Below, one piece after another: positions 7,278-56,102 of a DNA stretch of 64,000 bases (position 1 is its first letter; the number at the start of each line of letters is the position of its first letter). This stretch comes from an uncultured Enterobacteriaceae bacterium (lineage in GTDB: Bacteria > Pseudomonadota > Gammaproteobacteria > Burkholderiales > SG8-39), in NCBI GenBank assembly GCA_964583645.1, contig CAZOWR010000001.1, positions 34 through 64,033 on the forward strand, read 5' to 3'. Below the pieces are notes generated by a model. The model was not told the origin of the DNA and did not search any database. It saw nothing but the letters and a program-made list of their open reading frames with translations. A program made the position numbers and the translations under genes.

Positions 7278-7300
7278 TGGCGGCCTGACGCGAGGCGGGG

Positions 7301-7324: not shown

Positions 7325-7330
7325 TCACGT

Positions 7331-11476: not shown

Positions 11477-11483
11477 TCGGCGC

Positions 11484-12320: not shown

Positions 12321-13117
12321 GCGCCGAAGAATCCGCGAAGCGGCTGGTGCGGGCCTATCGCCGGGGCAGGCTGTCGGAGGAAGCGGTGAGGCTGCTGGTC
12401 GAGGCCCACGGCAGCGGCAGGCCCGCGCAGGTCGGCGGCGTCACGCTCAAATCGGATCGGGAAGCCTACCGGGTGCAGGACGCGGTTTTCTCGCGGCTGT
12501 GGCCCGGCGCGCGGGCGGCGGCGTGGAAGGCGGGCGGGCCGAGCGACAAGGTGGAGCCGACCGCGGCGCCGATCCCGCCGGAGCGGCTGCTCGCGAGCCC
12601 CGCGAGCATCGCGGCGAAGCGCCTCAACCTGCTCGGCGTGGAGGCCGAGATCGCTTTCCGCCTGCGGCGCGACCTGCCGCCGCGCGCGAGGCCCTACTCC
12701 GAGCAGACGCTCGCCGACGCGATCGGCGAGGTGCTGGTGGCGATCGAGGTCTGTGCCACGCGCCTGGCGGACTGGAAAGAGTCCTCCAGCCCGTGGAAGC
12801 TCGCCGATTTCCAGAACAACGGCGCGCTCGTCGCGGGAAGCGGGATCGCGGACTGGCGCAGCATCGACTTCGGCGAGCTGGAGGCCCGCTTCAGCATCGG
12901 CGGCGCGGTCCGCAAGGCGAAAGGCGCGCATCCGTTCGGCAATCCGTTCCGGCTGATCCCGTGGCTCTCGCGGCACTGCGCGAAGCGCGGCCTGGGCCTG
13001 CACGCCGGGGACGTCGTCACCACGGGCGCCTGGACGGGGCTGGAGACCGTGCGGCCCGGCGACGAGGTCATCGCCCGGTTCGCGGACATCGGCGAGGCGA
13101 AGGTGCGGATCATCTGA
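12317..13117 (+). CDS. 2-keto-4-pentenoate hydratase / FAH-fold hydratase-decarboxylase family protein
   Basis: Second half of track ORF 11519..13117. ATG 12317 overlaps the ureD stop (ATGA). MhpD/HpcG-like pattern AYRVQD...WKAGG...GVEAEIAF...IEVC..R...[10 protein letters not shown]...[11 protein letters not shown]. Ends 1 nt before ureA. Confidence 0.7.
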
Positions 13118-13118
13118 C

Positions 13119-13421
13119 ATGGAGCTCACGCCCCGCGAGAAGGACAAGCTGCTCGTCTTCACCGCGGCGCTGCTCGCCGAGCGGCGCAGGGCGCGGGGGC
13201 TCAGGCTGAACTATCCGGAGGCGGTGGCGTTCATCACCGCGGCGATCATGGAAGGGGCGCGCGACGGCAGAAGCGTGTCGGAGCTCATGACTTGGGGCGC
13301 GACGCTGCTTGGGCGTGGCGAGGTGATGGAGGGCGTGCCCGAGATGATCCCGGAGATCCAGGTCGAGGCCACGTTTCCCGACGGCACCAAGCTCGTCACC
13401 GTGCACCATCCGATCCCATGA
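13119..13421 (+). CDS. ureA: urease gamma subunit
   Basis: 100 aa. [12 protein letters not shown]...[10 protein letters not shown] is the canonical UreA sequence. Confidence 0.95.
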
Positions 13422-13722
13422 TCCCGGGCGAGATCGAGGCGGCGGCGGGCGACATCGAGCTCAACGCGGGGCGCAGGACCGTGACGCTCGAGGTGACCAA
13501 CACCGGCGACCGGCCGGTGCAGGTCGGCTCGCACTACCACTTCTTCGAGGTGAACGAGGCGCTCAGCTTCGAGCGCGCGAAGGCCTACGGCCATCGCCTC
13601 AACATCGCGGCGGGCACCGCGGTGCGCTTCGAGCCGGGGCAGGCGCGCACGGTCGAGCTGGTCGCGCTCGCCGGCGCGCGCCGGGTCTACGGCTTCGCCG
13701 GCAAGGTCATGGGGAGGCTCAA

Positions 13723-13726
<4 letters not shown>
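13418..13726 (+). CDS. ureB: urease beta subunit
   Basis: MIPGEI...[22 protein letters not shown] 13418 overlaps the ureA stop (ATGA). Confidence 0.95.
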
Positions 13727-15419
<1,693 letters not shown>

Positions 15420-15420
<1 letters not shown>

Positions 15421-15938
15421 TGCTGCAGATCAAGTCGAAGCTTAAGATCCGGCGCGGCGCCTACAAGCTGGAGGTGAAGGGCCGCCTGCGGCTGCCGTTC
15501 GACGCCCGCCAGAAGAGCCGCCTGCGTGCGAAGCTCGAGTCCGGCGAAGAGGTCGCGCTCATGCTGGCACGTGGCGAGGTTCTGCGCGGCGGGGACCTCG
15601 TGACCGCCTCCGACGGACGGGTGATCGAGGTCGTGGCCGAGCCCGAGAAGCTGCTCCACGTCGAGTGCGCGGACCGCGTGCAGCTGGCGCGTATCGCCTA
15701 CCACCTGGGCAACCGGCATGTCCCGGTCCAGGTCGGGGATGGCTTTCTGCGCCTGGCGCACGACCACGTTCTCGAGGAAATGGTGAAGCAGCTCGGCGGC
15801 GAGGTGACGCACGCCGAGGCGCCGTTCGAGCCCGAGGCGGGCGCCTACCGCGAGGCGCATTCGCACGGCGGCAAGATCCACGAATACGGCGGGCACGACC
15901 ACGACCACGAGCACCACGGCCATGACCACAAGCATTGA
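15420..15938 (+). CDS. ureE: urease accessory (nickel chaperone) protein UreE
   Basis: Tail of track ORF 14580..15938. ATG 15420 overlaps the ureC stop by 1 nt. Motif GNRHVPVQ and a His-rich tail [14 protein letters not shown]. Confidence 0.85.
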
Positions 15939-16572
15939 GCGTCTCGCGCGCCTGCTGCAGCTCGCGAGCCCGGCGCTGCCGGTGGGCGCCTACAGCTACT
16001 CCGGGGGCCTGGAGGCGGCGATCGAGGCGGGGTGGGTGAAGGATGCGCCTGCGGCCGAGCGCTGGATCGGCGAGGTGCTCGAGCACCCGGTGGGGCGCAT
16101 GGAGGCGCCGATCCTCGCCCGCATGATCGAGGAGCCGGACCGCGTCCGGAAGTGGAACGCGCTGTTCCTCGCCAGCCGCGAGACCGCCGAGCTGCGCGCC
16201 GAGACGGTGCAGATGGGCTACTCGCTGAATCGGCTGCTGCCGGAGCTCGGCGTGGCGCCGCTGGAGCTGGAGGAGCCGGCCTTCCCGGCCGCGTTCGCGC
16301 AGGCGGCGCGCGCCTGGGGAATCGAGCCGCGCGCGGCGCTCACCGCCTATCTCTGGGCCTGGCTCGAGAGCCAGGTCATGGCGGCGGTGAAGACGGTGCC
16401 CCTGGGCCAGACCGAGGGGCAGAAGATGCTGCTCGCGCTCGGCGCGAGGCTTCCCGCCGTGGTGGCTGCGGCGCTCGCGCTCGAGGAGGATGCGCTCGGC
16501 AACTTCGCGCCGGGCCTCGCGCTCGCCTCGATGCGCCACGAGACGCAGTACTCGAGGCTGTTCCGCTCATGA
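15922..16572 (+). CDS. ureF: urease accessory protein UreF
   Basis: 216 aa. [21 protein letters not shown], and its position between ureE and ureG. Confidence 0.85.
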
Positions 16573-20747: not shown

Positions 20748-22040
20748 ATGGGCACGCTACAGGACGTTCGCAAGCTGATGGTCGCAGCGGCGGTCGCGAT
20801 CGCGTTCGCGGGCGCGGCGCTCGCCGACGAGACCTGCAATTCGCCTTACACGACGCGCCTCATCAAGGGACAGGAGGACTACGTCCACGTCTGGACCCTG
20901 GGCGTGGACGGCCTCGGCGACGGCTCGGACAAGCTGGTGACCGTAGACGTCAATCCGAGGTCGAAGCGCTACGGCAAGGTCGTGCACACGCTCTCGGTCG
21001 GGGGTCGCGGCGAGGCCCACCACATGGGCTTCACCGACGACCGCAAGCATCTGTGGGCGGGCGGGCTGGACGACTCCAGGATCCACGTCTTCGACGTCGG
21101 CTCCAATCCGGCGAAGCCGAGGCTGGTGCGCACGATCGCCGATCTGCCGAAGAAGACGGGATTCGTCGGCCCGCATACCTTCTACGCGCTCCCCGGCCGG
21201 ATGCTCGTGCAGGCGCTCTCGAACAGCAAGGATCACGGCGGCGTGACCGGCATCGCGGTGTACAACAACCGGGGCAGGTTCGTCGCCAGGTACGACATGC
21301 CGACGGGCGAGCTGGGCGGCGTCAAGGGCGACGGCTACGGCTACGACCTCGCGATCAACCCGCGCAAGAACGTGCTGCTCACCTCCAGCTTCGCGGGCTG
21401 GAACAACTACATGATGGACATGGGCAAGCTGGTGAAGGACGCCGAGGCGATGAAGCGCTTCGGTGGCACCATGGCCGCCTGGGATCTGAAGGCGATGAAG
21501 CCGAAGCAGATCTTCAGCGTTCCGGGCTCGCCGCTCGAGATCCGCTGGTCGCTCAACCCGAAGGACAACTGGGCGGTGACGGCGACGGCCCTGACCTCCA
21601 AGATCTGGCTCATCAAGCCCGACGGCAAGGGAGGCTGGCAGGCGAAGGACGTGGCGACGATCGGCGATCCGTCGAAGATCCCGCTGCCGGTGGACATCTC
21701 GATCAGCGCGGACGGCAGGGGCCTCTGGGTCAACACCTTCATGGACGGCCTGACGCGCTACTTCGACCTCTCGAACCCGGAGGCGCCGAAGGAGATCTAT
21801 ACGAAGAAGACCGGCAAGCAGGTCAACATGATCTCGCAGAGCTGGGACGGCAAGCGCGTATACATCACCAGCTCGCTGCTCGCCAACTGGGACAAGAAGG
21901 GCGAGGACAACGAGCAGTTCCTGGCGCTCTACAGCTGGGACGGCAAGGAGCTGAAGGAGCAGTGGCGGATCGACTTCACGAAGGAGAAGCTCGGCCGCGC
22001 CCACCACATGAAGTTCAGTGCCAAGGGCAAGAAGACGTAG
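20748..22040 (+). CDS. mtoX: SBP56 (selenium-binding protein 56 kDa) family protein, methanethiol oxidase-like, secreted
   Basis: 430 aa with a signal peptide ending ALA-DE. Blocks LVTVDVNPRSKRYGKVVH, RIHVFDVGSNPAKPRL, GYDLAINPRKNVLLTS and DGKRVYITSSLLANWDKK line up with the SELENBP1/MtoX family. SD GGAGGAGGG lies upstream. Confidence 0.75.
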   Translation: MGTLQDVRKLMVAAAVAIAFAGAALADETCNSPYTTRLIKGQEDYVHVWTLGVDGLGDGSDKLVTVDVNPRSKRYGKVVHTLSVGGRGEAHHMGFTDDRKHLWAGGLDDSRIHVFDVGSNPAKPRLVRTIADLPKKTGFVGPHTFYALPGRMLVQALSNSKDHGGVTGIAVYNNRGRFVARYDMPTGELGGVKGDGYGYDLAINPRKNVLLTSSFAGWNNYMMDMGKLVKDAEAMKRFGGTMAAWDLKAMKPKQIFSVPGSPLEIRWSLNPKDNWAVTATALTSKIWLIKPDGKGGWQAKDVATIGDPSKIPLPVDISISADGRGLWVNTFMDGLTRYFDLSNPEAPKEIYTKKTGKQVNMISQSWDGKRVYITSSLLANWDKKGEDNEQFLALYSWDGKELKEQWRIDFTKEKLGRAHHMKFSAKGKKT

Positions 22041-44871: not shown

Positions 44872-45090
44872 CTACTCGAGGATCGCGATCAGCTCGCCCT
44901 CGGCGAGCGCATCGCCCTCGGCGACGCGCAACTCGCGCAGCCGCCCGGCGCGCGGCGCAGCGACCGGGATCTCCATCTTCATGGACTCGAGGATCAGGAT
45001 CGGCTGCCCGGCCGCGAGCGCGGCGCCGGGCCGCGCCTCGATCTTCCAGACCTTGCCGGCGACCTCGGCCCTCACCTCGAGCGGCCTCAC
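44872..45090 (-). CDS. stand-alone biotinyl/lipoyl attachment-domain protein (BCCP-like)
   Basis: C-terminal 72 aa of track ORF 44872..46287. GTG 45090 overlaps the ligase stop (GTGA). ILESMKMEIP carries the MKM biotinylation-type motif. Confidence 0.7.
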   Translation of the reverse strand: MRPLEVRAEVAGKVWKIEARPGAALAAGQPILILESMKMEIPVAAPRAGRLRELRVAEGDALAEGELIAILE

Positions 45091-46748
45091 GCCGCCCCCC
45101 CGGCGCGCGCCGCGAACTCGCGCTCCTGCAGCGCGCGCCACTGGATCTTGCCGGTGCCGGAGCGCGGCAGCGCGGGCGCGAACTCGATCGCGCGCGGCAC
45201 CTTGTAGGCGGCCATTTCGCCGCGCGCCCAGTCCAGGATCTCCTGTGCGCCCGCGCTCGCCCCCGCCTTGAGGACCACGACGGCCTTCACCGTCTCGCCG
45301 CGGCGCGCATCGGGCGCGGCGATGACGCAGCACTCCTGGATGGCGGGGTGGCGGTACATCGCGGCCTCGACCTCGGCGGGCCAGACCTTGTAGCCCGCGG
45401 CGTTGATCATGCGCTTGATGCGGTCGGAGATGAAGTAGTAGCCGTCCTCGTCCATGCGCCCGAGGTCGCCGGTGCGGAAGAAGTCGCGCCCGCCGACGTT
45501 CACCCAGGACTCGCGGAAGCTCGAGTCGTTCTTCCAGTAGCCGATGAGGAGCTGCGGGCCGCGCACCACGATCTCGCCCGCCTCGCCGGGAGCGAGCGGC
45601 GTGCCGCGCTGCGGGTCGAGCACGCCGGCCTCGGTGTCGAAGGTCGGAATGCCGAGGCACGGGCGCCGTGCCTCCCGGGGAGGGTTGATGTGGGTCTGCG
45701 AGATGCTCTCCGTCATCCCGTAGCCCTCCATGTAATGGATGCCGCAGACCTGGTGCAGCTTGCGCGCGATCGCCTCGGGCATCGCCGCGCCGCCGCCGAA
45801 GATGCAGCGCAGCGACGAGACGTCGTGGCGCAGCGCCTCGGGGTGCGAGAGCAGGTCCACCACCATCGTGGGAACGTTGGCCCAGTGCGTGCAGCGGTGC
45901 CGCTCGATGAGGCGCGCGGCGAGCCACGGATCCCAGCGCGGCTGGATCGCGAGCGTCGCGCCGCTCCACGCCGAGGCGAGCAGGCTGTGCACGAGGCCGG
46001 TGACGTGGAACATGGGCGCCGTGCACAGGGCGACCGCGTCCTGGTGCATCGACTCCCACAGCGCGGCACCGAGCACGTTGTGCAGCGTGGTGGCGTGCGT
46101 GTGCATGCAGCCCTTCGGGCGGCCGGTGCTGCCCGAGGTGTAGGGCATGAGGCACAGGTCGCGCGGCTGCGCGCGCGAGGGCGCGGGCGCGCGCGCCGCA
46201 GCGAGTGCCTCCGACCAGCGGACCGCGCCCGCGGCGTCGATTTGCTGTCGCGGCGCCGTCACCGCCTCGGGCGCGGGCAGGTCGCAATCCGCATCGGCGT
46301 AGTCGGCGTAGGCCGCGACCACCGCGTGGGCGAGGCCCAGGCCCGCGAAACGCGGCCAGAGCTCCTGCCCCACGATCGCCACCCGCGCGTCGCTGTCCTC
46401 GGCGTAGTGGCCGAGCTCGGCGGCCACGCTCATCGGCGAGAGCGGCACCGCCACCGCGTCGGCGCGCAGGATCGCGAAGAGCGCCAGCGGGAACTGGGGG
46501 CTGTTCTGCAGGCAGAGCAGCACGCGGTCGCCGCGGCGCACGCCGCAGACCTGCTGCAGGTGGCCCGCCAGGCGCTCGACCTGTGCGAGCGCCGCGCCGT
46601 AGCGGAGCACGCCGCCGAAGAACAGGCTGAAGGGCCGGTCCGGGTAGCGCGCGGCCGACGCCTCGAGCATGCCGTGCAGCGTGCTGCGCGGCAGCGTCAG
46701 CGAGCGCGGCAGGTGCTTGGGCCAGAATCGCCAGTGGCGGGGCTCCAT
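45087..46748 (-). CDS. AMP-dependent acyl-CoA synthetase/ligase
   Basis: 553 aa. YTSGSTGRPKG, GYGMTE, TGDLG, and the GKIQ terminal motif. Confidence 0.85.
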   Translation of the reverse strand: MEPRHWRFWPKHLPRSLTLPRSTLHGMLEASAARYPDRPFSLFFGGVLRYGAALAQVERLAGHLQQVCGVRRGDRVLLCLQNSPQFPLALFAILRADAVAVPLSPMSVAAELGHYAEDSDARVAIVGQELWPRFAGLGLAHAVVAAYADYADADCDLPAPEAVTAPRQQIDAAGAVRWSEALAAARAPAPSRAQPRDLCLMPYTSGSTGRPKGCMHTHATTLHNVLGAALWESMHQDAVALCTAPMFHVTGLVHSLLASAWSGATLAIQPRWDPWLAARLIERHRCTHWANVPTMVVDLLSHPEALRHDVSSLRCIFGGGAAMPEAIARKLHQVCGIHYMEGYGMTESISQTHINPPREARRPCLGIPTFDTEAGVLDPQRGTPLAPGEAGEIVVRGPQLLIGYWKNDSSFRESWVNVGGRDFFRTGDLGRMDEDGYYFISDRIKRMINAAGYKVWPAEVEAAMYRHPAIQECCVIAAPDARRGETVKAVVVLKAGASAGAQEILDWARGEMAAYKVPRAIEFAPALPRSGTGKIQWRALQEREFAARAGGAA

Positions 46749-46757
46749 GGCGGCACG

Positions 46758-46764
46758 TATATTA
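46758..46764. promoter_or_regulatory. shared AT block TATATTA in the 23-bp divergent gap (-10 candidates for both flanking genes)
   Basis: Plus strand TATATT is 8 nt before ATG 46772. Minus strand TAATAT is 10 nt before ATG 46748. There is no SD on either side. Confidence 0.35.
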
Positions 46765-46771
46765 GCCGCAC

Positions 46772-47209
46772 ATGCAGGAGCACAGCTTTCTGCTGCGGGA
46801 AGGGCTGTGGCGCGCCGAGGGGGAGTTCATCGACGGCGCCGGCACGTCGAGTGCGGTGGAAGGCGAGGCGCACATCCGCCACTATCCGGAGAAGTGGATC
46901 TACGAGGGCGTGCTGCGCACGCGCGGCGCGAAGCCGGCCGAGCACCGCACGCGCTACGAGATCCAGCCCTTCCCGCCGGGCAACTTCGCCACCGGCTGGA
47001 CCTCGAGCAGCGCCTCCATCGGCACGCTGCACGGGCGCTTTCTCATCGTCGGCGACGCGATCCTCTCGGTGTTCGAGTCGGCGACCGGCCGCTACCGCGG
47101 CCAGGACACCCTCCTGCGGCGCGACGAGCGGCGCTACAGCGCGCGCGGCGCGCTGTTCGACGGCCCGAAGCTGCTCTCGGCCTGGGCGATCGAGCTCACC
47201 CAGCCCTGA
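46772..47209 (+). CDS. hypothetical protein (beta-rich, lipocalin-like guess)
   Basis: 145-aa ORF with normal composition and GC3 bias. I recognised no family motif. Confidence 0.5.
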   Translation: MQEHSFLLREGLWRAEGEFIDGAGTSSAVEGEAHIRHYPEKWIYEGVLRTRGAKPAEHRTRYEIQPFPPGNFATGWTSSSASIGTLHGRFLIVGDAILSVFESATGRYRGQDTLLRRDERRYSARGALFDGPKLLSAWAIELTQP

Positions 47210-47269
47210 GAAACGGGGTCAGACCACGTTTTCCACGAACGAAAACGTGGTCTGACCCTATTTCCGGAG
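47208..47269. repeat. palindromic doublet D of the GGTCAGACC repeat family (best copy; bidirectional terminator-like hairpin)
   Basis: GGGTCAGACCACGTTTTC (47216-47233) and GAAAACGTGGTCTGACCC (47241-47258) are exact reverse complements with a 7-nt loop. The element fills the gap between two convergent stop codons. Confidence 0.8.
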
Positions 47270-48670
47270 TTTCGAGAGGTCGGGCATGGGCAGCGGATGC
47301 ACCGCCTCGAAGGCGCGCGCGGCGCGCAGCACGAGGGCGTCGGCGTAGCGCGGCCCGACGATGTGCAGCCCCACCGGCAGGCCTTTCCCGGTAAGGCCGC
47401 AGGGAATGCTCGCCGCCGGCTGCTGCGTGAGGTTGAACGGGTAGGTGAAGGGCGTCCAGTCGGTCCAGCGCTTCTCGCGCAGCAGATTCGAGACCTCCTT
47501 GCCGGCCTCGAAGGCTGCGAGCGGCAGCGTCGGCGTCAGCAGCAGGTCGTACTTCCGGTGGAAGAGATTCATCAGCGCGCCGAGCGCGCCGCGCTGCGCC
47601 ACCGCGGCGAGGTAGTCCCTGGTGGAGATTCTCTCGCCCTGGCGCGCGACCTCGAGCAGCCCCTTGTCCACCAGAGGACGCTTGCGCGGGTGGATGGCCC
47701 GCACGATGCCGGCAGCGCCGGGGAACCAGTGGTTCGTGAAGACGCTCAGCTGGTCCTCGAACCCCGGGTCTGTCGCCTCCACGCGCGCGCCGAGCTCGGA
47801 GAGGCTGCGCGCCGCGCGCTTCACGAGGCGCGCCACCTCCGGGTCCACCTTGGCGTAGCCGAGGTCGGCGGAGTACGCGATGCGCAGCCCGCGCACCCCG
47901 TCCTCCAGCCCGACGCGATAGTCGCGCGGATCGGGGGGCAGCGCGTGCCAGTCGCGCGCGTCCGGCGCTGCAATGACGTTCATGAGCAGCGCCGCGTCAG
48001 CCACCGAGCGCGTGATCGGCCCTACGTGCGCCACCGTGCCCATGGGCGAGAGCGGCCACGCCGGCACCCGGCCGAAGCTGGGCTTGAGGCCGAACAGGCC
48101 GGTGAAGGCGCAGGGAATGCGGATCGAGCCGCCGCCGTCGGTGCCCAGCGTCAGCGGTCCCATGCCGGAAGCGACCGCGGCCGCGCTGCCGCCCGAGGAG
48201 CCGCCGGGCGTCTTCCGGGTATCCCAGGGATTCCGGGTGATCCCGGTGAGCGGGCTGTCGGTAACCCCCTTCCAGCCGAATTCGGGCGTCGTGGTCTTGC
48301 CGAGGATCACCGCGCCGTGCTCGCGCAGGCGCGCGACGCTCGGCGCGTCGTCGCGCCAGGGTCCCTTCGGGTCCACGGTCCGCGAGCCGCGCAGCGTGGG
48401 CCAGCCGCGCGTCAGCAGCAGATCCTTTACCGAGACCGGCACGCCGTCGAGCAGGCCTCTGGGCTCGTTGCTGCGCCAGCGCGCCTCGGATTCGCGCGCC
48501 GCCTTGAGCGCCGCTTGCGCGTCGACGAGCTTGAACGCGTTGAGCACGGGATTGAGCTGCCCGATGCGCGCGAGCACCGCGCGCGTCGCTTCGACCGGCG
48601 AGAGCGCGCGCCGCCGATAGGCAGCGAGCAGTTCGGTGGCGGTGAGCGAACAAGGATCGGAGGATTTCAT
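47258..48670 (-). CDS. amidase-signature (AS) family amidase
   Basis: Track ORF 47258..48808 from ATG 48670. GGSSGGSAAAVA and GTDGGGSIRIPCAF (Ser-cisSer-Lys signature region). Confidence 0.85.
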   Translation of the reverse strand: MKSSDPCSLTATELLAAYRRRALSPVEATRAVLARIGQLNPVLNAFKLVDAQAALKAARESEARWRSNEPRGLLDGVPVSVKDLLLTRGWPTLRGSRTVDPKGPWRDDAPSVARLREHGAVILGKTTTPEFGWKGVTDSPLTGITRNPWDTRKTPGGSSGGSAAAVASGMGPLTLGTDGGGSIRIPCAFTGLFGLKPSFGRVPAWPLSPMGTVAHVGPITRSVADAALLMNVIAAPDARDWHALPPDPRDYRVGLEDGVRGLRIAYSADLGYAKVDPEVARLVKRAARSLSELGARVEATDPGFEDQLSVFTNHWFPGAAGIVRAIHPRKRPLVDKGLLEVARQGERISTRDYLAAVAQRGALGALMNLFHRKYDLLLTPTLPLAAFEAGKEVSNLLREKRWTDWTPFTYPFNLTQQPAASIPCGLTGKGLPVGLHIVGPRYADALVLRAARAFEAVHPLPMPDLSKLRK

Positions 48671-48674
48671 CGGG

Positions 48675-49547
48675 TCACCTGTCGAGTGCGAGCGAGGATC
48701 GGGTGCCGAACACCCAGCCGCCCGCGAGCGCCGGCGGCAGGATCGCGGCATAGAGTGCGGGGCGCAGCGCTCTGACGGCCGCACCGGTTTGCGCGAGGCG
48801 CGCCGCAAGCGCGGCCGGGTCGGCGCACCGCAACGCGTATCCCGCGAGCGCGGGTCCGGGCGGAGGCGCTGCGCCGAAGATCGCCTGCCAGTCGCGATCG
48901 CTGCCGATCAGGACGTCGCCGCGCTCGCTGCGCAGATGCACGAAAGGCCCGGCCGGGCGCGGCAGGAGCGCGGCGAACTCCGCCCAGCGCGCCGCCGCCT
49001 GCGACGGATCGTCCGCGACGACGAACGCGCAGGCGAGGCCGGTGACGCCGTTCTCGTGCCCCATCCAGCGCTCGTGCCAGAGCACCTCGGGCGTCAGGTG
49101 CTGCACGAACTGCACGCGCCCCTCGGGCATCGCCTCGGGCGCGGCGCGGATCACCCGGAACCGCGCGAGGCCGGTCTCGGTCTCGCGCCGCAGCTCGACC
49201 GGCGGCTGCGGCCGCAAGCCGTGCGCCGCGAGCCGCGCGTGCTCCTCTTCGGCGGCCGGCGTGCCGAAGCAGGCGAGGTGCACGCCGGGGTAGCGGCGCA
49301 TCGTCGCGCGCAGCCGCCCGGCGTTCGGCGTCGGCGCGGTCGGGGCGAGGAACTCGAGGTAGCCCTCCCGGAGCATGACGCAGACGTTGGCGGTTCCGGC
49401 CGGGCCGTCCTGCGTCGCCTGCGCCGACTCCGGCGTCACCGCGAAGCCGAGGGCGCGCAGCGCGCGCGCCGCCGCGCCCAGGTCGGGCACGAAGTGCGAA
49501 ACGTGATCGAGCACGAGGCTCCCGGGCGGCGGGACGGGGCGGGGCAC
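48675..49547 (-). CDS. VOC (glyoxalase/bleomycin-resistance/dioxygenase-like) domain protein
   Basis: 290 aa. LDHVSHFVPDL start and a two-module layout. The family call is tentative. Confidence 0.55.
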   Translation of the reverse strand: MPRPVPPPGSLVLDHVSHFVPDLGAAARALRALGFAVTPESAQATQDGPAGTANVCVMLREGYLEFLAPTAPTPNAGRLRATMRRYPGVHLACFGTPAAEEEHARLAAHGLRPQPPVELRRETETGLARFRVIRAAPEAMPEGRVQFVQHLTPEVLWHERWMGHENGVTGLACAFVVADDPSQAAARWAEFAALLPRPAGPFVHLRSERGDVLIGSDRDWQAIFGAAPPPGPALAGYALRCADPAALAARLAQTGAAVRALRPALYAAILPPALAGGWVFGTRSSLALDR

Positions 49548-49552
49548 GGTCC

Positions 49553-49559
49553 TATAATA
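49553..49559. promoter_or_regulatory. shared AT block TATAATA in the 17-bp divergent gap (perfect TATAAT)
   Basis: Plus strand TATAAT is 6 nt before GTG 49565. Minus strand TATTAT is 6 nt before GTG 49547. There is no SD on either side. Confidence 0.4.
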
Positions 49560-49564
49560 CTTGC

Positions 49565-51268
49565 GTGAACAAGCCGGTCGAGCCGCAGGTGGCGACGGTC
49601 ACGGGCGCCGAAGCCGTGGTGGCGGTGCTCAAGGCGCACGGCGTGGAGGTGATCTTCGGTCTGTGCGGCGACACCAGCCTGCCGCTGTACGACGCGCTCG
49701 CGCGCCTGCCCCACGGCATGCGCCACGTGCTGACGCGCGACGAGCGCCACGCCGCCTACATGGCGGACGGCTACGCGCGCGTCTCGGGGCGGGTCGGCGT
49801 CTGCGAGGGGCCGTCGGGGGGCGGCGCGACCTACATCCTCCCGGGTCTGGCCGAGGCGAACGAGTCCTCGGTGCCGCTGCTCGCGATCAACACCGACGTG
49901 TCGGTCGCCTCGCGCGGCCGCTTCACGCTCACCGAGCTCGACCAGGGCGCACTGATGAGGCCCGTCACCAAGTGGAACGCGGTGATCGAGCGCTCGCAGG
50001 ACATCCCGCGCACGCTGCGCGCCGCCTTCAACGCGATCACGACGGGACGGCCCGGGGCCGCGCACGTCGCGCTGCCGTTCGACGTGCAGAACGGGCCCGT
50101 GGAGCGCGCCGAGCTCTGGGGCGATCCGAGCCTCGCGCAGGCGCCTTCGCGCCGCGTCGCGCCCGACCCGTTGCACGTCGAGCTCGCGGCGAAGCTGCTG
50201 CGCCGCGCGAGTCGTCCGCTGCTCATCTGCGGCGGTGGCGTGGTGAGCTCCGGCGCCGAAGGCGAGCTCGCCGAGCTCGCCGAGCTGCTCTCGGCCCCGG
50301 TGGCGACCACGGTGAGCGGGCAGGGCGCGATTCCAGACGAGCATCCGCTCGCGGTGGGCGTGGTGGGCTCCAACGGCGGCACGCCGGAGACGCGCGCCGT
50401 CGTGGACGGCGCCGACCTCGTCTTCTTCGTCGCCTGCCGCGCCGGGTCGGTGACCACCGAGCGCTGGCGCCATCCCGCGCCCGGCAACGCGAGGATCGTG
50501 CACCTGGACGTCGATCCGCGCGCGATCGGCGCGAACTACAAGGTGGATGTGCCCCTGGTGGCGGATGCGAAGCTCGGCCTCGCGGCGCTCAACGAGGCGC
50601 TGGAGGGTACGAAGCGGCCGCTCGATGCCGCCGGCGTGCAGAAGGCCCGTGCGGCAAAGCTCGCCAGGTTCGAGCAGCTCGCGCGCTCCGACGAGGCGCC
50701 GATCCGCCCGGAGCGGGTGGTGGCGGAGATGGCCGCCGCGCTCGACCCGGACGCGATGCTCGCGCTCGATCCGGGGACGCCCTGCCCGTACTTCTCGGCC
50801 TTCTACCCGATCCGCGGCACCGGGCGGCGCGTGTTCTCGAACCGCGCGCACGGCGCGCTCGGCTACGCGATGTCGGCGGCGATCGGGGCGCATTTCGCGC
50901 GTCCCGCGGTGAAGACGGTGGCGGTGATGGGCGACGGCAGCTTCGGGATGTGCGCCGGAGAGCTGGAGACCGCGGTACGGCTCGGGCTCCCGGTCACTTT
51001 CGTCGTCCTGTCGAACGCGGTGTACGGCTGGATCAAGGCGGGGCAGAAGTCCGGCTACGGCGCGCGCTACTTCGCGGTGGACTTCGGCGTCACCGACCAC
51101 GCTCGCGTCGCCGAGGCCTACGGGCTGAAGAGCTGGCGCGTGACCGAGCCGCGCGAGCTGGGCGAGGCGTTTTCGGCCGCGTTCGCGCACGGCGGACCCT
51201 CGCTCGTGGACGTGGTCTGCCAGCCGCTGCAGGAGGCGCGCGCGCCGGTCTCGGAGTGGGTCGCGTGA
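49565..51268 (+). CDS. thiamine-diphosphate-dependent enzyme (acetolactate synthase large subunit-like)
   Basis: 567 aa. VTGAEAVVAVLKAHGVEVIFGLCGD at the N-terminus, and the GDGSF...N TPP-binding motif (VMGDGSFGM...LSNAVYG). Confidence 0.8.
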   Translation: MNKPVEPQVATVTGAEAVVAVLKAHGVEVIFGLCGDTSLPLYDALARLPHGMRHVLTRDERHAAYMADGYARVSGRVGVCEGPSGGGATYILPGLAEANESSVPLLAINTDVSVASRGRFTLTELDQGALMRPVTKWNAVIERSQDIPRTLRAAFNAITTGRPGAAHVALPFDVQNGPVERAELWGDPSLAQAPSRRVAPDPLHVELAAKLLRRASRPLLICGGGVVSSGAEGELAELAELLSAPVATTVSGQGAIPDEHPLAVGVVGSNGGTPETRAVVDGADLVFFVACRAGSVTTERWRHPAPGNARIVHLDVDPRAIGANYKVDVPLVADAKLGLAALNEALEGTKRPLDAAGVQKARAAKLARFEQLARSDEAPIRPERVVAEMAAALDPDAMLALDPGTPCPYFSAFYPIRGTGRRVFSNRAHGALGYAMSAAIGAHFARPAVKTVAVMGDGSFGMCAGELETAVRLGLPVTFVVLSNAVYGWIKAGQKSGYGARYFAVDFGVTDHARVAEAYGLKSWRVTEPRELGEAFSAAFAHGGPSLVDVVCQPLQEARAPVSEWVA

Positions 51269-51594
51269 CGCTCGAGCTCGAGCCCGGGCGCGGGCACCAC
51301 GACATGGGCGGGCTGCCGGCGGGCCGCGTCGAGCGCACCGAGCACGACTACGCGGAGTGGGAGCGGCGCGTGGACGCGATGATGGTGATCCTCTCGGGCG
51401 TGAAGGGCGGGCGCAAGCTCATGACGGTGGACGAGCTGCGCAAGAACATCGAGGCCATCGGCCCCGAGGCCTACGACCGCATGAGCTACTACGAGCGCTG
51501 GATCACCTCCATCACGCAGACCATGATCCAGCGCGGCGTCATCACCACCGAGGAGCTGGGCCGCAAGATGGAGGAGGTGAAGCGCCGTGCCTGA
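51265..51594 (+). CDS. nitrile hydratase beta subunit, N-terminal-half protein (SCNase-beta/ToyL-K-like split subunit)
   Basis: Tail of track ORF 49561..51594. GTG 51265 overlaps the upstream stop (GTGA). HHDMGG compares with the NHase beta IHD(L/T)GG start. AEWERRVDAMM, YYERWI. Confidence 0.65.
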   Translation: MTLELEPGRGHHDMGGLPAGRVERTEHDYAEWERRVDAMMVILSGVKGGRKLMTVDELRKNIEAIGPEAYDRMSYYERWITSITQTMIQRGVITTEELGRKMEEVKRRA

Positions 51595-51925
51595 ACCGGA
51601 GAAACAGGGTCAGACCACGATTTCCACGGAAGGAAGCGTGGTCGACCCCCGTTTTTCCGCAGGCGATCGGGTCAGGGTTCGCAAGGCGTATCCCCTGGGC
51701 CACATCCGCACACCGTTCTACGTGCGCGGGCTCACCGGCGAGGTGGAGCGCCTTTGCGGCAGCTTCCCCAACCCAGAGGAACTGGCGCAGATGCGCGACG
51801 GCCTGCCGCGCCGGCCGCTGTATCGCGTGCGCTTCGTGCAGCACGACCTCTGGCCCGACTACCGTGGCAGGGACGCGGACGCGGTGGAGGTCGAGATCTT
51901 CGAGCACTGGCTGGAGCCGGCGTGA
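51587..51925 (+). CDS. nitrile hydratase beta subunit, C-terminal-half protein
   Basis: 112-aa track ORF. The conserved part is FSAGDRVRVRKAYPLGHIRTPFYVRG...PLYRVRF...LW (SH3-like beta C-domain). The start is uncertain: GTG 51587, or the in-frame GTG 51638 preceded by GGAAGGAAG. Confidence 0.7.
   Translation: MPEPEKQGQTTISTEGSVVDPRFSAGDRVRVRKAYPLGHIRTPFYVRGLTGEVERLCGSFPNPEELAQMRDGLPRRPLYRVRFVQHDLWPDYRGRDADAVEVEIFEHWLEPA
51596..51660. repeat. palindromic doublet E of the GGTCAGACC repeat family
   Basis: CCGGAGAAACAGGGTCAGACCACGATTTCC plus GGAAGCGTGGTCGACCCCCGTTTTTCCGC. Starts 2 nt after the beta-N stop codon. Confidence 0.75.
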
Positions 51926-52518
51926 AGCAGGACCCGGGACGCTACCAGCCGCTCAGCTACTTCCAGCTCATGGAGGTGAGCCTGCGCGAGCTGCTGGTCG
52001 AGAAGGGCGTGACCACCGAGGCCGAGGTACGGGCGACGCTGGAGGACGTGCGGGCGCGCACCCCGGAACGCGGCGCGAGGGTGGTGGCGCGCGCCTGGAC
52101 CGACCCGGAATTCAAGGCGCGGCTGCTCGCCGACGGGACCAAAGCCTGCCAGGAGCTCGGCCTGGACGTGCCGGCCCTCAGGCTCGTGGTGGTGGAGAAC
52201 ACGCCGCGGGTGCACAACATGATCGTGTGCACGCTGTGCTCGTGCTATCCGCGGATGCTGCTCGGCCTGCCGCCCGACTGGTACAAGTCGCGCAACTACC
52301 GCTCGCGCGCGGTGCGCGAGCCGCGCGCGGTGCTCGCGGAATTCGGGCTGCGGCTGCCGGACGAAGTGCAGGTGAGGGTGCACGACTCGAGCGCGGACAT
52401 GCGCTACCTCGTGCTGCCGATGCGACCGGCGCAGACCGCAGGCTGGAGCGAGGAGCGGCTCGCGGGCATCGTCACCCGCGACTGCATGATCGGCGTGGCG
52501 GTGCCGGCGGTGAGCTGA
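51922..52518 (+). CDS. nitrile hydratase alpha subunit (cobalt-type VCTLCSC metal site)
   Basis: Inside track ORF 51754..52518. GTG 51922 overlaps the upstream stop (GTGA). VCTLCSCYPRMLLGLPPDWYKSRNYRSRAVREPR. Confidence 0.85.
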   Translation: MKQDPGRYQPLSYFQLMEVSLRELLVEKGVTTEAEVRATLEDVRARTPERGARVVARAWTDPEFKARLLADGTKACQELGLDVPALRLVVVENTPRVHNMIVCTLCSCYPRMLLGLPPDWYKSRNYRSRAVREPRAVLAEFGLRLPDEVQVRVHDSSADMRYLVLPMRPAQTAGWSEERLAGIVTRDCMIGVAVPAVS

Positions 52519-52537
52519 GCGCGGCAAAGTCCTCGCC

Positions 52538-53236
52538 CTGAAGAAGCTCCGCACGCCCACGCTCGAGCCGCTCGGCGACGCCGCCGCCTACGCGGAGTTC
52601 GCCGCGGCATTCGACCCCGAGGTGAACGGGGCGCTGCAGTCGGCGGCCAACGTGCTGCGCCAGCACGCGCCGGACTGGCTCACCGGCGTGGTACCCGCGC
52701 TCGCCGGCATCGCGCTGCACTTCGATGCCGACCACGCCGGGCTTCCCGCCGATCCGCTCGAGGCGTGCGCGCGCCTGCTCGAGGAGGCGCTCGCCGCGGC
52801 GCACAAGGCCCCGCCGGCACCGCGCCTGGTCGAGGTACCGGTGTGCTACGATCCCCAGTTCGCGCTCGACATCGTCGAGGTCGCCACCGCCACCGGCGTC
52901 GCGCCCGAAGACGTGGCGCGCCTGCACGCGGCCACCGAGCACCGCGTCCTCATGGTCGGATTCGCTCCGGGGCAGCCGTACATCGGCGGCCTGGACGCGC
53001 GGCTGCGGCTCCCGCGCCGCGCCACCCCGCGCACGCGCGTCGTCGCGGGGTCGGTGGCGATCGCCAACGACCAGACCGCGGTGTATCCGTTCGAGATCGC
53101 GGGCGGCTGGAGCGTCATCGGGCGCACGCCGCTCGCGGTGTTCGACCCGCGGCGCGAGCCGCCCAACCTGCTCGAGGCGGGCGACCGGGTGCGCTTCGTG
53201 CCGGTGTCGCGCAGCGAGTACGAGCGCCTGAAGTGA
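52538..53236 (+). CDS. pxpB: 5-oxoprolinase subunit PxpB (KipI / allophanate hydrolase subunit 1-like)
   Basis: Track ORF 52622..53236. The conserved N-terminal strand TLEPLGDAAAYAEF lies upstream of GTG 52622 in the same open frame. The only start-like codon after the in-frame TGA 52511 is CTG 52538. FAPGQPYIGG, YPFEIAGGW. Confidence 0.65.
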   Translation: MKKLRTPTLEPLGDAAAYAEFAAAFDPEVNGALQSAANVLRQHAPDWLTGVVPALAGIALHFDADHAGLPADPLEACARLLEEALAAAHKAPPAPRLVEVPVCYDPQFALDIVEVATATGVAPEDVARLHAATEHRVLMVGFAPGQPYIGGLDARLRLPRRATPRTRVVAGSVAIANDQTAVYPFEIAGGWSVIGRTPLAVFDPRREPPNLLEAGDRVRFVPVSRSEYERLK

Positions 53237-54252
53237 GCCTCAGGATCCTCAAGCCCGGCCTGCTCAGCACGCTGCAGGACCGCGGCCGCTTCGGCCTGCA
53301 GCACCTCGGCGTCGCGCCCGGCGGGCCGATGGACCGGGTGGCGCTCGCGCTGGCCAACGCGCTCGTGGGCAACGGCGCCGAGGAAGCCGCGCTCGAGATC
53401 ACGCTGATCGGCCCGGAGATCCTCTTCGAGAAGGACGCGCTGGTGGCGCTGTGCGGAGCGGAGCTCGAGGCGCGCTCCGGGGGGGCGGCTTTCCCACGCG
53501 ATCGTCCCGTGCTGGTGCGCGCCGGGACACGGCTCTCCGCCGGCCGCGCGCGGCGCGGCAGCCGCGCCTACCTGGCGGTGGCGGGCGGATTCGCGTGCGA
53601 CCCGGTGCTCGGCAGCCGCTCGACCTGCCTGCCCGCGCGCTTCGGCGGGCTGGAGGGCCGGGCGCTGCGCGCCGGGGACCTGCTTGCTCTGGCGCCGGAG
53701 GCCCCGGCGCAGGCCGCGGAGCGCTTCGCGCGGCTCGCGGCACAGGTGCGCGTGATCGACGGCCTGGAGAGCGTGCGCTGGTCGGCGCCCTCGCTCACGC
53801 TGCCCGAGGGCGAGGACATCGTGGCGCACGCCATGGAGGGCCGGCATTTCGCGCAGTTCGAGGCGGCGTCCCGGCGCGCGTTCTTCGAGTCGCAGTGGCG
53901 CGTCGCTCCGGACTCCAACCGCATGGGATTCCGGCTCATGGGGGCCACGCTCGCACGGGGCAAGGCCGCTGAGATACTATCGGAGCCGACCTGCCTGGGC
54001 ACGGTGCAGGTGCCCGCGGGCGGCGCGCCGATCGTCCTGATGGCCGATCACCAGACGACCGGGGGCTATCCGCGCATCGCCGAGGTGGCGGGCGCGGACG
54101 TGCCGTGCCTCGCGCAGCTCGCACCGGGCGCGCGCCTGCGCTTTGCGCGCTGCTCCCTGGAGGAGGCGAGGGCGCTGGGCCGCGCGCTGCGCGCGCGGCT
54201 GGACGCGGCGCTGCGCGCCATTGCCTGGCGGTACGGATATGAAGAGCATTGA
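53233..54252 (+). CDS. pxpC: 5-oxoprolinase subunit PxpC (KipA / allophanate hydrolase subunit 2-like)
   Basis: Tail of track ORF 52765..54252. GTG 53233 overlaps the pxpB stop (GTGA). LLSTLQDRGR, SNRMGFRL, ADHQTTGGYP. Confidence 0.8.
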   Translation: MSLRILKPGLLSTLQDRGRFGLQHLGVAPGGPMDRVALALANALVGNGAEEAALEITLIGPEILFEKDALVALCGAELEARSGGAAFPRDRPVLVRAGTRLSAGRARRGSRAYLAVAGGFACDPVLGSRSTCLPARFGGLEGRALRAGDLLALAPEAPAQAAERFARLAAQVRVIDGLESVRWSAPSLTLPEGEDIVAHAMEGRHFAQFEAASRRAFFESQWRVAPDSNRMGFRLMGATLARGKAAEILSEPTCLGTVQVPAGGAPIVLMADHQTTGGYPRIAEVAGADVPCLAQLAPGARLRFARCSLEEARALGRALRARLDAALRAIAWRYGYEEH

Positions 54253-54988
54253 CCTCAATTGCGACATGGGCGAGAGCTTCGGCGCCTGGAAGATGGGCGC
54301 GGACGCCTCGGTGATGCCCTACATCAGCTCGGCGAACGTCGCCTGCGGCTTCCACGCCGGCGACCCGGCGACCATCCGCGCCACCGTGCGCCTGGCGCTC
54401 GATCACGGCGTCGCCATCGGCGCGCACCCGTCGCTGCCGGACCTGATGGGCTTCGGGCGGCGCGCGATGCGCATCTCGCCGCAGGAGATGTACGACCTCG
54501 TCGTCTACCAGGCGGGCGCGGTGGAGGCCTTCGCGCGCGCCGCGGGCGCGCGGCTGCACCACGTCAAGTGCCACGGCGCGCTCTACAACATGGCGGCGAA
54601 CGACGCGGCGCTCTCGGAGGCGATGGTGAAGGCGGCGAAGGACCTGGGCTCGATGCTCTACGTGCTGTCGAACAGCAGGAACCACGCGATTGCGAAGCGC
54701 GCCGGGGTGCCGGTGGCGGGCGAGGTGTTCGCCGACCGCGGCTACTCCGACGACGGCACGCTCGCACCGCGCGATCGACCCGGAGGCATGATCGAGGACG
54801 CGGCGGCCGCGGTGAAGCAGGCGCTCGCGATGATCGAAGAGGGCTACGTCACCAGCCTCTCGGGCAAGCGCGTGCCGGTCTCGGCCGACACCATGTGCCT
54901 GCACGGCGACCAGCCCGGCGCGGTCGCGTTCGCCAAGGCGCTGAGGCAGGCTTTCAAGGAGAAAGGAATCACCGTTGCGGCCCCCTAG
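54239..54988 (+). CDS. pxpA: 5-oxoprolinase subunit PxpA (LamB/YcsF family)
   Basis: Inside track ORF 54143..54988 from ATG 54239. IDLNCDMGESFG, ANVACGFHAGDP, KCHGALYN. Confidence 0.85.
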   Translation: MKSIDLNCDMGESFGAWKMGADASVMPYISSANVACGFHAGDPATIRATVRLALDHGVAIGAHPSLPDLMGFGRRAMRISPQEMYDLVVYQAGAVEAFARAAGARLHHVKCHGALYNMAANDAALSEAMVKAAKDLGSMLYVLSNSRNHAIAKRAGVPVAGEVFADRGYSDDGTLAPRDRPGGMIEDAAAAVKQALAMIEEGYVTSLSGKRVPVSADTMCLHGDQPGAVAFAKALRQAFKEKGITVAAP

Positions 54989-56102
54989 ACTGTTCGCGCC
55001 GATCCAGCTCGGCGGCGTCACGCTTCCCAACCGCGTCGTGGTCTCGCCGATGTGCCAGTACTCGGCCGACGACGGCTGCATGGGCGACTGGCACCTGATG
55101 CACCTCGGCAGCCTCGCCTGCTCGGGCGCCGGGCTGATGAACGTGGAGGCGACGGGGGTGACGCGCGAGGGCCGCATCTCGCACGGCTGCACCGGCCTGT
55201 ACAGCGAGCACAACGAGGCGGCGATGCGGCGCGTGCTCCAGGCCTGCCGGCGCATCACCCGCTCGCCCTTCGGCATCCAGCTCGCGCACGCCGGACGCAA
55301 GGGCTCCGTGCAACCCCCTTTCCACGGCGGCAGGCCGCTCGGGGCGGGGGAGTCGCCGTGGCAAACCGTCGCGCCTTCGCCTGTCGCCTACGACAGCGGT
55401 TGGCATACGCCTCACGAGCTATCCGCACTCGAGCTTCGCCAGCTCGTCGATGATTTCGCCGCCGCGGTGAAGCGCGCGGCGGCGATCGGGTTCGACATCG
55501 TGGAGCTGCACTCGGCGCATGGGTACTTGCTTCATGAGTTCCTGTCGCCGCTCTCGAATCGGCGCGGCGATCGCTACGGCGGGAGCCTGGAGAACCGCAT
55601 GCGCTTTCCGCTGGAAGTCGCGCGCGCGGTGCGCGATCTCTGGCCGCGCGAGCGGGGACTGGGTGCTCGCCTCTCGGCGACCGATTACGCCGAGGGCGGG
55701 TTCAACCCGGAGGAAGCGGTCGCCTACGTGCGCGAGCTGCAGCGCATCGGCTTCGACTTCGTCTGCCTCTCCGGGGGCGGACTGGTGCCGCACCAGCGGA
55801 TCAAGGTCGAGCCCGGCTACCAAGTCGAGTTCGCGGCGAAGATCAAGCAGGCGGTGCCGATCGCGGTGCGCGCCGTGGGCATGATCGTCGATCCCGTTCA
55901 GGCCGAGGAGATACTCGCGTCCGGCAAGGCCGACATGGTGGCGCTCGCGCGCGCGCTGCTCGATGACCCGCGCTGGGTGTGGCACGCCGCGGAGCGCTTC
56001 GGCGTCAAGCTCGACTACCCGCCGCAGTACGCGCGCAGCCATCCGTCGGTGTGGCCGGGGGCGGCACTGGCTCGCCCACGGGCGGAAGTCGCGGCCGAGT
56101 AG
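54975..56102 (+). CDS. Old Yellow Enzyme-family NADH:flavin oxidoreductase
   Basis: 375 aa. PNRVVVSPMCQY, QLAHAGRK, HSAHGYLLHEFLSP, RLS..D. The TTG start overlaps the pxpA 3' end. Confidence 0.85.
   Translation: MRPPRLFAPIQLGGVTLPNRVVVSPMCQYSADDGCMGDWHLMHLGSLACSGAGLMNVEATGVTREGRISHGCTGLYSEHNEAAMRRVLQACRRITRSPFGIQLAHAGRKGSVQPPFHGGRPLGAGESPWQTVAPSPVAYDSGWHTPHELSALELRQLVDDFAAAVKRAAAIGFDIVELHSAHGYLLHEFLSPLSNRRGDRYGGSLENRMRFPLEVARAVRDLWPRERGLGARLSATDYAEGGFNPEEAVAYVRELQRIGFDFVCLSGGGLVPHQRIKVEPGYQVEFAAKIKQAVPIAVRAVGMIVDPVQAEEILASGKADMVALARALLDDPRWVWHAAERFGVKLDYPPQYARSHPSVWPGAALARPRAEVAAE

Follow-up and report, generated by a model that had tools for sequence, protein, structure and literature searches.

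The stretch of DNA analysed here, referred to throughout as the window, comprises 64,000 nt of contig CAZOWR010000001.1 from an uncultured bacterium. It contains a group of ten genes arranged around a cobalt-type (Co-type) nitrile hydratase (NHase) whose beta subunit is split between two open reading frames (ORFs), accompanied by an amidase, the three subunits of a 5-oxoprolinase (PxpB, PxpC and PxpA) and three further enzymes. As the window is 72% G+C, real genes were picked by third-position GC and then checked against Pfam and NCBIfam. An original prediction made from the letters of the sequence had described ten genes, their order, their domains and a VCTLCSC motif in the alpha subunit, and all of these were confirmed by the three approaches. 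The features are listed below, where aa denotes amino acids, ThDP thiamine diphosphate, VOC vicinal oxygen chelate and OYE Old Yellow Enzyme; the N- and C-terminal halves of the beta subunit are termed bN and bC.

47258-48670, minus strand: amidase-signature amidase (PF01425, E 9e-108; 470 aa; start ATG 48670)
48675-49547, minus strand: two-domain VOC / Glyoxalase_3 protein (PF13468, E 1e-34; 290 aa)
49548-49564, no strand: divergent intergenic gap of 17 nt with an AT-rich element (TATAATA at 49553-49559)
49565-51268, plus strand: ThDP enzyme of the acetolactate-synthase / glyoxylate-carboligase type (TPP_enzyme_N, M and C domains; 567 aa)
51265-51594, plus strand: NHase beta N-terminal half, bN (PF21006, E 1.6e-19; separate ORF, 109 aa)
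51587-51925, plus strand: NHase beta C-terminal SH3-like half, bC (PF02211, E 2.7e-23; separate ORF, 112 aa)
51922-52518, plus strand: Co-type NHase alpha subunit, VCTLCSCYPR (PF02979, E 3.8e-82; 198 aa)
52538 (candidate CTG start)-53236, plus strand: pxpB, 5-oxoprolinase subunit B (PF02682, E 1e-60; TIGR00370 160.9, cut-off 145.55)
53233-54252, plus strand: pxpC, 5-oxoprolinase subunit C (PF02626, E 2.7e-90; 339 aa)
54239-54988, plus strand: pxpA, 5-oxoprolinase subunit A, LamB/YcsF family (PF03746, E 1e-99; 249 aa)
54975-56102, plus strand: OYE flavin oxidoreductase, YqjM/NamA-like (PF00724, E 8e-66; 375 aa)

The genes form two units that diverge across the 17-nt gap, exactly as predicted. 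In the leftward unit the VOC gene comes first and the amidase gene second, with the amidase start 4 nt past the VOC stop. The rightward unit begins with the ThDP enzyme gene and ends with the OYE gene, and its seven junctions measure -4, -8, -4, +103, -4, -14 and -14 nt. It had been proposed that these eight genes are chained mostly by 4-nt overlaps. Overlaps are indeed present at 6/7 junctions, but only three of them are of 4 nt (among them that between the ThDP stop and the bN start), the others being of 8, 14 and 14 nt, and the junction between the alpha and pxpB genes is open by 103 nt if the first conventional start codon is taken. A closer inspection of this junction (52514-52622) reveals that the pxpB reading frame is open from 4 nt ahead of the alpha stop codon and that no ATG, GTG or TTG occurs from the upstream in-frame stop until GTG 52622, the codon 103 nt past alpha. 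Starting at GTG 52622 would cost about 17 residues of the family model. Homology to PxpB sets in near 52559-52571, the TIGR00370 match starts 11 residues after 52541, and the only nearby candidate start is CTG 52538. In most relatives pxpB starts with TTG, GTG or ATG at -7 to +4 nt from the alpha stop. The junction is identical in three independent assemblies (99.96% identity), and it is therefore not a random assembly error. A programmed frameshift from alpha into pxpB was considered, since the pxpB frame opens before the alpha stop, and was disfavoured because relatives use ordinary starts.

Among the genes annotated within ~10 kb there is no regulator, NHase activator or cobalt transporter, in agreement with the original prediction; the nearest regulator is a TetR belonging to a neighbouring efflux operon. 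No aldoxime dehydratase domain was found among the genes annotated ~10 kb either side, nor in the related loci inspected. Rfam and tRNA scans returned nothing in the locus, and no convincing internal terminator was seen in it.

Conservation of the arrangement was assessed with an alpha-subunit scan of one genome per species, which yielded 80 loci; the 49 closest species constitute the cluster-bearing NHase clade. Partner genes were counted by tblastn with the window proteins, the denominators being those loci with enough sequence on the relevant side. The VOC gene was present in 25/26 relatives and the OYE gene in 31/32, followed by pxpB (34/39), pxpC (31/36), pxpA (31/36), the ThDP enzyme gene (19/29) and an amidase gene adjoining VOC (9/22). 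The genes flanking the cluster in the window gave counts of 4/29 (BON), 0/23 (EamA), 1/22 (ABC2), 6/17 (acyl-CoA ligase) and 3/21 (a 145-aa protein, hyp145). Protein identities among relatives run from ~50% (PxpB) to ~82% (PxpA, median; top of the cluster), values too low for near-identical strains. When the alpha subunits are placed in a neighbour-joining tree, every cluster-bearing locus falls in one clade, and the other 30 loci, together with three plasmid homologues, are without any partner gene. The claim that the genes belong together is thus upheld by synteny: VOC, NHase, pxpBCA and OYE keep their order (25/26 to 31/36) while the flanks change. Judged in this way, the gene cluster is evidently not a chance juxtaposition, and selection appears to have kept its arrangement across the clade.

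The counts also separate a constant core (VOC, NHase and OYE) from modules (ThDP, pxpBCA and the adjacent amidase). In five loci pxpBCA is absent, having been lost or never gained, and NHase and OYE remain; OYE directly follows alpha in four of these five, another ORF intervening in the locus L026. The ThDP gene is missing in several subclades, and there the amidase tends to adjoin VOC. A LivK-type ABC transporter lies upstream of VOC in ~11 loci, and hsp33 is found downstream in ~10 relatives. The clade consists almost wholly of metagenome-assembled genomes of uncultured Burkholderiales/Betaproteobacteria, with a few records bearing other or doubtful labels. Housekeeping genes make up most of the outgroup neighbourhoods; a few of these also contain a CoA-transferase and a MaoC-like gene, and no substrate clue was found there. 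Separately, in two pxp-less loci (L026, 3498-6016; L032, 2144-4692) two genes follow the amidase which, by eye, resemble a GCS2-type carboxylate-amine ligase and a hydrolase of the succinylglutamate-desuccinylase/aspartoacylase type; these hint at glutamate-linked chemistry.

The NHase itself was compared with curated models and solved structures. The alpha subunit passes the model for NHase alpha (TIGR01323, 262.2 versus a cut-off of 249.85) and fails that for the gamma subunit of thiocyanate hydrolase (SCNase; TIGR03887, 237.8 versus 291.45), so that by the curated model the enzyme is predicted not to be an SCNase. Against solved structures it scores ~200 bits with Co-type NHases, 190 with SCNase gamma and 188 with Fe-type NHases. 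The top match, 4OB1, was rejected as spurious, since the sequence deposited for it is duplicated in part. No beta subunit of ~220-230 aa in one piece, as in the classical enzymes, was found; instead the 109 aa of bN match positions 2-98 of TIGR03888 at 64 bits and the 112 aa of bC match positions 132-226 at 77 bits (cut-off 152.2). Both halves are remote from every solved beta chain, at 35 and 55 bits. The catalytic beta arginines are nevertheless kept, as R59 of bN (in DELRKNIE, aligned to the Arg of DEFR) and the Arg of GHIRTP in bC, and they are conserved in both the partner-bearing and the partner-free clades. The YYERW segment is retained in the beta halves as well.

These features recur across the related loci. 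Beta is split in 68/68 of those where both halves could be examined, and CTLCSCYPR is present in 79/80, with YPK in one. An Arg therefore follows CSCYP where the NHases of Pseudonocardia thermophila (PtNHase) and Pseudomonas putida, the solved Co-type alpha chains seen here, have Trp. We take this Arg to be one of two residues that set anion selectivity in SCNase, whose pocket arginines are presumably gamma Arg136 and beta Arg90, with the equivalences in the present enzyme likewise assumed. Two PDB entries bear on this residue: 3VYH is PtNHase with Trp replaced by Arg, and the SCNase gamma chain in 3VYG departs from the wild-type sequence. In bN the catalytic Arg is preceded by Leu58, at what we assume to be the position of the second SCNase arginine.

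There is no ORF for an activator or self-subunit-swapping chaperone between or after the subunit genes, alpha being followed by pxpB. A second, tandem copy of bN is found in seven relatives (L008, L010, L012, L013, L017, L030 and L035), and in L008 (4530-5117) the two bN domains read as one ORF with no stop between them. As known self-subunit-swapping chaperones resemble NHase beta, the extra bN copy might stand in for the missing activator.

On account of the split beta subunit, the lack of an activator and the changed pocket residue, the enzyme is placed by its sequence in the NHase superfamily but outside the classical two-gene Co-type group. It does not group with ordinary two-gene aliphatic NHases, and the alpha tree and the motif survey agree in assigning it to a split-beta CTLCSCYPR family. 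This family is apparently large and uncharacterised, with at least 8000 candidates in soil/sediment metagenomes, the best 120 of which are at least 81% identical.

The three-polypeptide architecture raises two alternatives. Under the first, an SCNase-like enzyme would act on a small pseudohalide (thiocyanate, cyanate, cyanamide or cyanide) to give ammonia directly, or urea or formamide, with the other genes unrelated or serving side products. Each polypeptide pairs with an SCNase subunit (2dd4_B with bN, 2dd4_A with bC and 2dd4_C with alpha), the Arg after CSCYP would fit if its presumed selectivity role is right, a point on which the pair 3VYG/3VYH bears only indirectly, and the adjacent amidase is dispensable (9/22). 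Moreover, related systems of the YPR type adjoin a cyanase with a cyanate/nitrate-type transporter, or an aquaporin. However, the alpha subunit falls below the SCNase-gamma cut-off and above that for NHase alpha, the catalytic bN Arg is preceded by Leu58 rather than by the presumed second SCNase arginine, the locus contains no carbonyl sulfide (COS) hydrolase, sulfur-oxidation gene, cyanase or cobalt transporter, and an amidase is present in the window. We consider this explanation unlikely, and the suggestion in the original prediction that thiocyanate may be the substrate is weakened by the gamma score in particular. Under the second, the enzyme would tailor a nitrile-bearing secondary metabolite to its amide in the manner of toyocamycin nitrile hydratase (ToyJKL), with which it has the three-polypeptide NHase architecture in common. 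Here the partners are hydrolytic or catabolic, neither the window nor the related loci contain deazapurine or other biosynthetic genes, and the family has the abundance in soil metagenomes given above; a biosynthetic role is scarcely credible.

The divergent gap is conserved too. It holds the only sigma-70-like match in 46.5-57 kb, and its AT run is one of only 8 AT-only runs of at least 6 nt in the 64 kb. In at least 25 relatives the corresponding gap, of 17-20 nt, is occupied by a homologous element, GCGCTAATATAACCGC or CAATAATAGCCGC, which is conserved whether the first rightward gene is that for the ThDP enzyme or bN. Start codons lie 6-8 nt after the -10-like hexamer on both strands (6 nt each in the window). 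This suggests that the gap consists of putative bidirectional, face-to-face promoters giving rise to leaderless mRNAs. Overlapping promoters of this kind would couple the control of both units, and the two divergent operons are probably co-regulated. A sigma-54 promoter in the gap was rejected on spacing in the sequence.

The same AT-rich, -10-like design is seen in a second divergent gap of 23 nt (46749-46771), which separates two of the flanking genes:

45087-46748, minus strand: AMP-forming acyl-CoA ligase, a peripheral neighbour (AMP-binding domains; NF006181 779.8, cut-off 705)
46772-47209, plus strand: hyp145, a 145-aa soluble protein (ORF; no Pfam/NCBIfam match)

In both divergent gaps (49548-49564 and 46749-46771) starts lie 6-10 nt from -10-like elements on both strands, and a further gene starting at 1285 has TAAATA (1273-1278) 6 nt before its ATG. 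Leaderless transcription may thus be a general habit of the organism.

The partner enzymes differ in how closely they match characterised families. The amidase passes an NCBIfam equivalog (NF004815, 736.7 bits versus a cut-off of 506), and its nearest solved relatives, the aryl acylamidase 4YJ6 and the amidase 3A1K, give it a generic amidase-signature placement. PxpA scores 343.3 with NF003814 (cut-off 226) and is 50-55% identical to PxpA of many phyla in a plasmid/chromid collection. PxpC scores 281 with TIGR00724 (cut-off 230) and 269 with the PxpC equivalog NF045499, below the 500 needed. The OYE protein is below the cut-off of the NamA equivalog (323 versus 431). For the VOC protein there was neither an NCBIfam match nor a PDB sequence match; its AlphaFold2 (AF2) model, confident at a pLDDT of 88.5, is closest in fold to the hypothetical Staphylococcus aureus protein 3P8A and to HPPD. 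Its residues H15, E65, H90 and E142 are invariant, a pattern reminiscent of the four metal ligands in glyoxalase I and methylmalonyl-CoA epimerase. Plasmid homologues of VOC occur in mixed contexts, of which the one in Alloyangia adjoins a ThDP enzyme only 34% identical to that of the window.

The ThDP enzyme lies below every NCBIfam cut-off. Its best PDB matches are BbmA (260 bits) and Gcl (235 bits), and a literature search on the names of the top PDB matches (BbmA, CsmA) found nothing. Orthologues 55-60% identical occur in Ruegeria, Cupriavidus and Variovorax, where they carry no annotation and adjoin genes for GntR regulators and TctC binding proteins, with no NHase; these NHase-free contexts mark the ThDP enzyme as a portable module. 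A route through a 2-hydroxyacyl-CoA lyase (HACL) and a cyanohydrin was set aside, as the ThDP enzyme scores higher against acetolactate synthase (ALS)- or Gcl-type enzymes than against HACL/OXC.

Each of these components has a plausible role in detoxification or repair by family. This is in keeping with a damage-control operon, in which nitriles, 5-oxoproline and enals or enones arising from oxidative (e.g. hypohalous-acid) damage to amino acids would be cleared by NHase/amidase, PxpBCA, OYE and VOC. At a distance of 3-9 kb downstream, both in the window and in ~10 relatives, is the gene for Hsp33, a redox-activated chaperone, and a BON-domain protein adjoins OYE. However, the hsp33 linkage may be merely positional, given that the intervening genes differ, no stress regulator or known stress promoter was found, and the formation of such nitriles in vivo is a chemical inference only. 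We regard a damage-control role as very unlikely.

Domains, intact catalytic motifs, operon-like packing and the arrangement across the clade are all observed directly. Taken together, they point to a nitrile-to-ammonia catabolic or scavenging operon pair built around a split-beta Co-type NHase, whose substrate would be a nitrile that is small, polar or anionic and whose downstream steps would be modular; we assign this reading a probability of about 0.6. The chemical steps, the substrate class, co-transcription and the promoter are inferred. The NHase would hydrate the nitrile to the amide, and the amidase-signature enzyme, where present, would release ammonia and the acid. PxpBCA, presumably co-translated, would open 5-oxoproline or a close lactam to glutamate-type products. 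The OYE would reduce an activated C=C bond of the substrate or product, and the VOC and ThDP enzymes would process the carbon skeleton. The net role would be nitrogen scavenging or detoxification from a natural nitrile. As for the kind of nitrile, the Arg in place of the pocket Trp points to a small and/or polar or anionic (e.g. carboxylated) compound rather than a hydrophobic aliphatic or aromatic one.

We are much less sure that all of the genes serve a single substrate. The original prediction had inferred one pathway. Synteny supports the functional linkage of the genes but does not show a single substrate for all ten, the ThDP enzyme (19/29) and the adjacent amidase (9/22) being of patchy occurrence and pxpBCA being absent from five loci.

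Several observations weigh against the proposed operon pair. The same NHase type stands alone in outgroup genomes, so its substrate need not require the partners. Comparison of NHase subunits with and without partners reveals just five fixed differences, of which one is in bN (R34K) and the others are in alpha; this suggests that the enzyme is probably the same in both and that the partners were added in one lineage. The ThDP enzyme, pxpBCA and the amidase are not universal, and no transporter or regulator is consistently attached across the related loci. Since the clade is made up almost wholly of uncultured Burkholderiales/Betaproteobacteria, shared descent rather than selection could account for some of the synteny. 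No substrate was identified from the locus. Furthermore, PxpA and PxpB look like ordinary 5-oxoprolinase by their NCBIfam cut-offs, so a housekeeping copy embedded in the operon is possible, and generic NADH:flavin oxidoreductases 55% identical to the OYE protein are found in many taxa.

Some of these points, namely the curated scores of PxpA and PxpB, the generic relatives of OYE and the small number of fixed differences in the NHase, also favour a mixed operon. Here the NHase, with or without the amidase, would act on nitriles, PxpBCA would be housekeeping and OYE a general electrophile reductase, the genes sharing a common promoter (e.g. under nitrogen or stress control) and acting on separate substrates. 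PxpA is moreover the most conserved protein of the cluster (median 82%), as expected of a housekeeping enzyme, and pxpBCA has gone from five loci in which NHase and OYE are kept. What such an operon explains less well is the exact placing of pxpBCA after alpha and before OYE in 31/36 genomes, with stop and start codons that overlap, while the flanks turn over, and the fact that VOC and OYE are almost never lost. We think a mixed operon rather doubtful.

A more specific and speculative form of the nitrile-to-ammonia reading is that the operon would give the abundant Burkholderiales of soil a hitherto unrecognised way of obtaining nitrogen from carboxylated nitriles. The amide made by the split-beta, Arg-pocket NHase would pass through a 5-oxoproline-type lactam that PxpBCA opens to glutamate, OYE and the VOC/ThDP enzymes would trim the skeleton, and the widespread CTLCSCYPR family would be a new functional class of NHase, acting on a natural substrate of its own. 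We offer this tentatively, as a long shot. Candidate substrates would arise either as adducts of cyanide or when amino acids are oxidatively decarboxylated; examples are beta-cyanoalanine, gamma-cyano-alpha-aminobutyrate, 3-cyanopropanoate and pyroglutamonitrile-type compounds.

The natural substrates of NHases are largely unknown though the enzymes are used industrially, and a fixed partner set in one large uncultured clade offers a handle for finding a natural nitrile. It also lets one ask whether 5-oxoprolinase-type lactamases and ene-reductases join nitrile metabolism. The family is marked by its split beta subunit, its altered substrate pocket and, in one clade, its fixed partners, and maturation of the NHase apparently requires neither an activator nor a cobalt transporter encoded nearby, a point of relevance to enzyme engineering. 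The combination had been predicted to be undescribed, and no description of this partner set around an NHase was found in the literature searched: there was no report of VOC, ThDP, PxpBCA or OYE partners with NHases, nothing linking NHase with 5-oxoprolinase, OYE or YcsF/KipI/allophanate-hydrolase subunits, and nothing relevant on three-subunit NHases.

Several other features of the window were recorded. Immediately following the acyl-CoA ligase gene is one for a free-standing 67-aa biotinyl-carrier domain protein (44872-45075, minus strand; ESMKME); no biotin carboxylase is encoded in its vicinity, and the relative L082 showed no such protein. Its presence is curious in that urea carboxylase is a biotin enzyme, and PxpB and PxpC share homology with its carboxyltransferase domain. 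Proteins 69-74% identical to hyp145 are encoded next to the amidase or the acyl-CoA ligase in several relatives. Genes for urease and for a urea ABC transporter, of which a UrtA-type binding protein and a HEAT-repeat permease were recognised, occupy 5988-16572, ~35 kb upstream of the NHase locus, and appear to constitute a second nitrogen-scavenging system on the contig. Antisense inside the urease alpha gene is a match to the Rfam family 5_ureB_sRNA (13871-14153, minus strand, 86.6 bits), which most likely reflects the conserved urease coding sequence and not a real sRNA. Lastly, a gene at 20748-22040 (plus strand), between those for an amidohydrolase and a di-haem cytochrome c peroxidase, matches the methanethiol oxidase MtoX equivalog at 755.7 bits (cut-off 650).

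How the locus stands to known systems can be set out component by component. With PxpABC 5-oxoprolinases it shares the adjacency of all three subunit genes, PxpA and PxpB being above their NCBIfam cut-offs. It departs from them in that the genes lie between those for NHase alpha and OYE, PxpC is below its equivalog and pxpB is without a canonical start.

The SCNase of Thiobacillus thioparus (scnBAC) likewise has three subunits, two of which correspond to NHase beta halves, so that bN resembles chain B of 2DD4, bC chain A and alpha chain C, and the Co-type motif is common to both. In contrast, the alpha subunit here is below the SCNase-gamma cut-off, there is no activator of the P15K type and there are no sulfur or COS genes, and an amidase is attached. 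The SCNase gene order was reportedly given as beta-alpha-gamma by Katayama in 1998. A review writes it as alpha-beta-gamma (PMC7193024).

A further comparison, made without any Toy sequence, is with ToyJKL of Streptomyces rimosus. We take ToyJKL to be a three-polypeptide Co-type NHase with a split beta subunit, its alpha gene first, from a deazapurine antibiotic cluster. The order here is bN-bC-alpha and the setting catabolic, and no que- or toy-type genes occur among the annotated genes of the window or the related loci.

Split-beta loci of the YPR type also occur in cultured bacteria, on plasmids of Streptomyces sp. NBC_01176, Burkholderia sp. PAMC 26561 and Microvirga terrae, with alpha subunits ~60% identical to that of the window. 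The two beta ORFs lie before nthA or on either side of it, and the sequence of the Burkholderia alpha subunit contains CTLCSCYPR. A HoxN/NixA cobalt transporter is encoded in these loci, accompanied variously by an aquaporin or by a cyanase with a cyanate-type ABC transporter, and there are no VOC, ThDP, PxpBCA or OYE genes. The Burkholderia plasmid (L084, 7457-16180) contains a bC-type gene, nthA, a second small SH3-like gene, HoxN, a cyanase and a CmpA/NrtA-type ABC transporter, and looks like a cyanate/thiocyanate-related locus in a cultured strain.

Finally, the usual layout of a Co-type NHase operon is <beta><alpha><activator> (PMC7193024). Compared with the Co-type NHase/amidase operons of Pseudonocardia thermophila, Pseudomonas putida NRRL-18668 and Rhodococcus rhodochrous J1, the locus described here differs in its split beta subunit, in the Arg for Trp after CSCYP and in having no activator or cobalt transporter. 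It shares with them a CTLCSC alpha subunit, a beta gene placed before alpha, both catalytic beta arginines, the YYE(R/H)W segment and a nearby amidase of the amidase-signature family.

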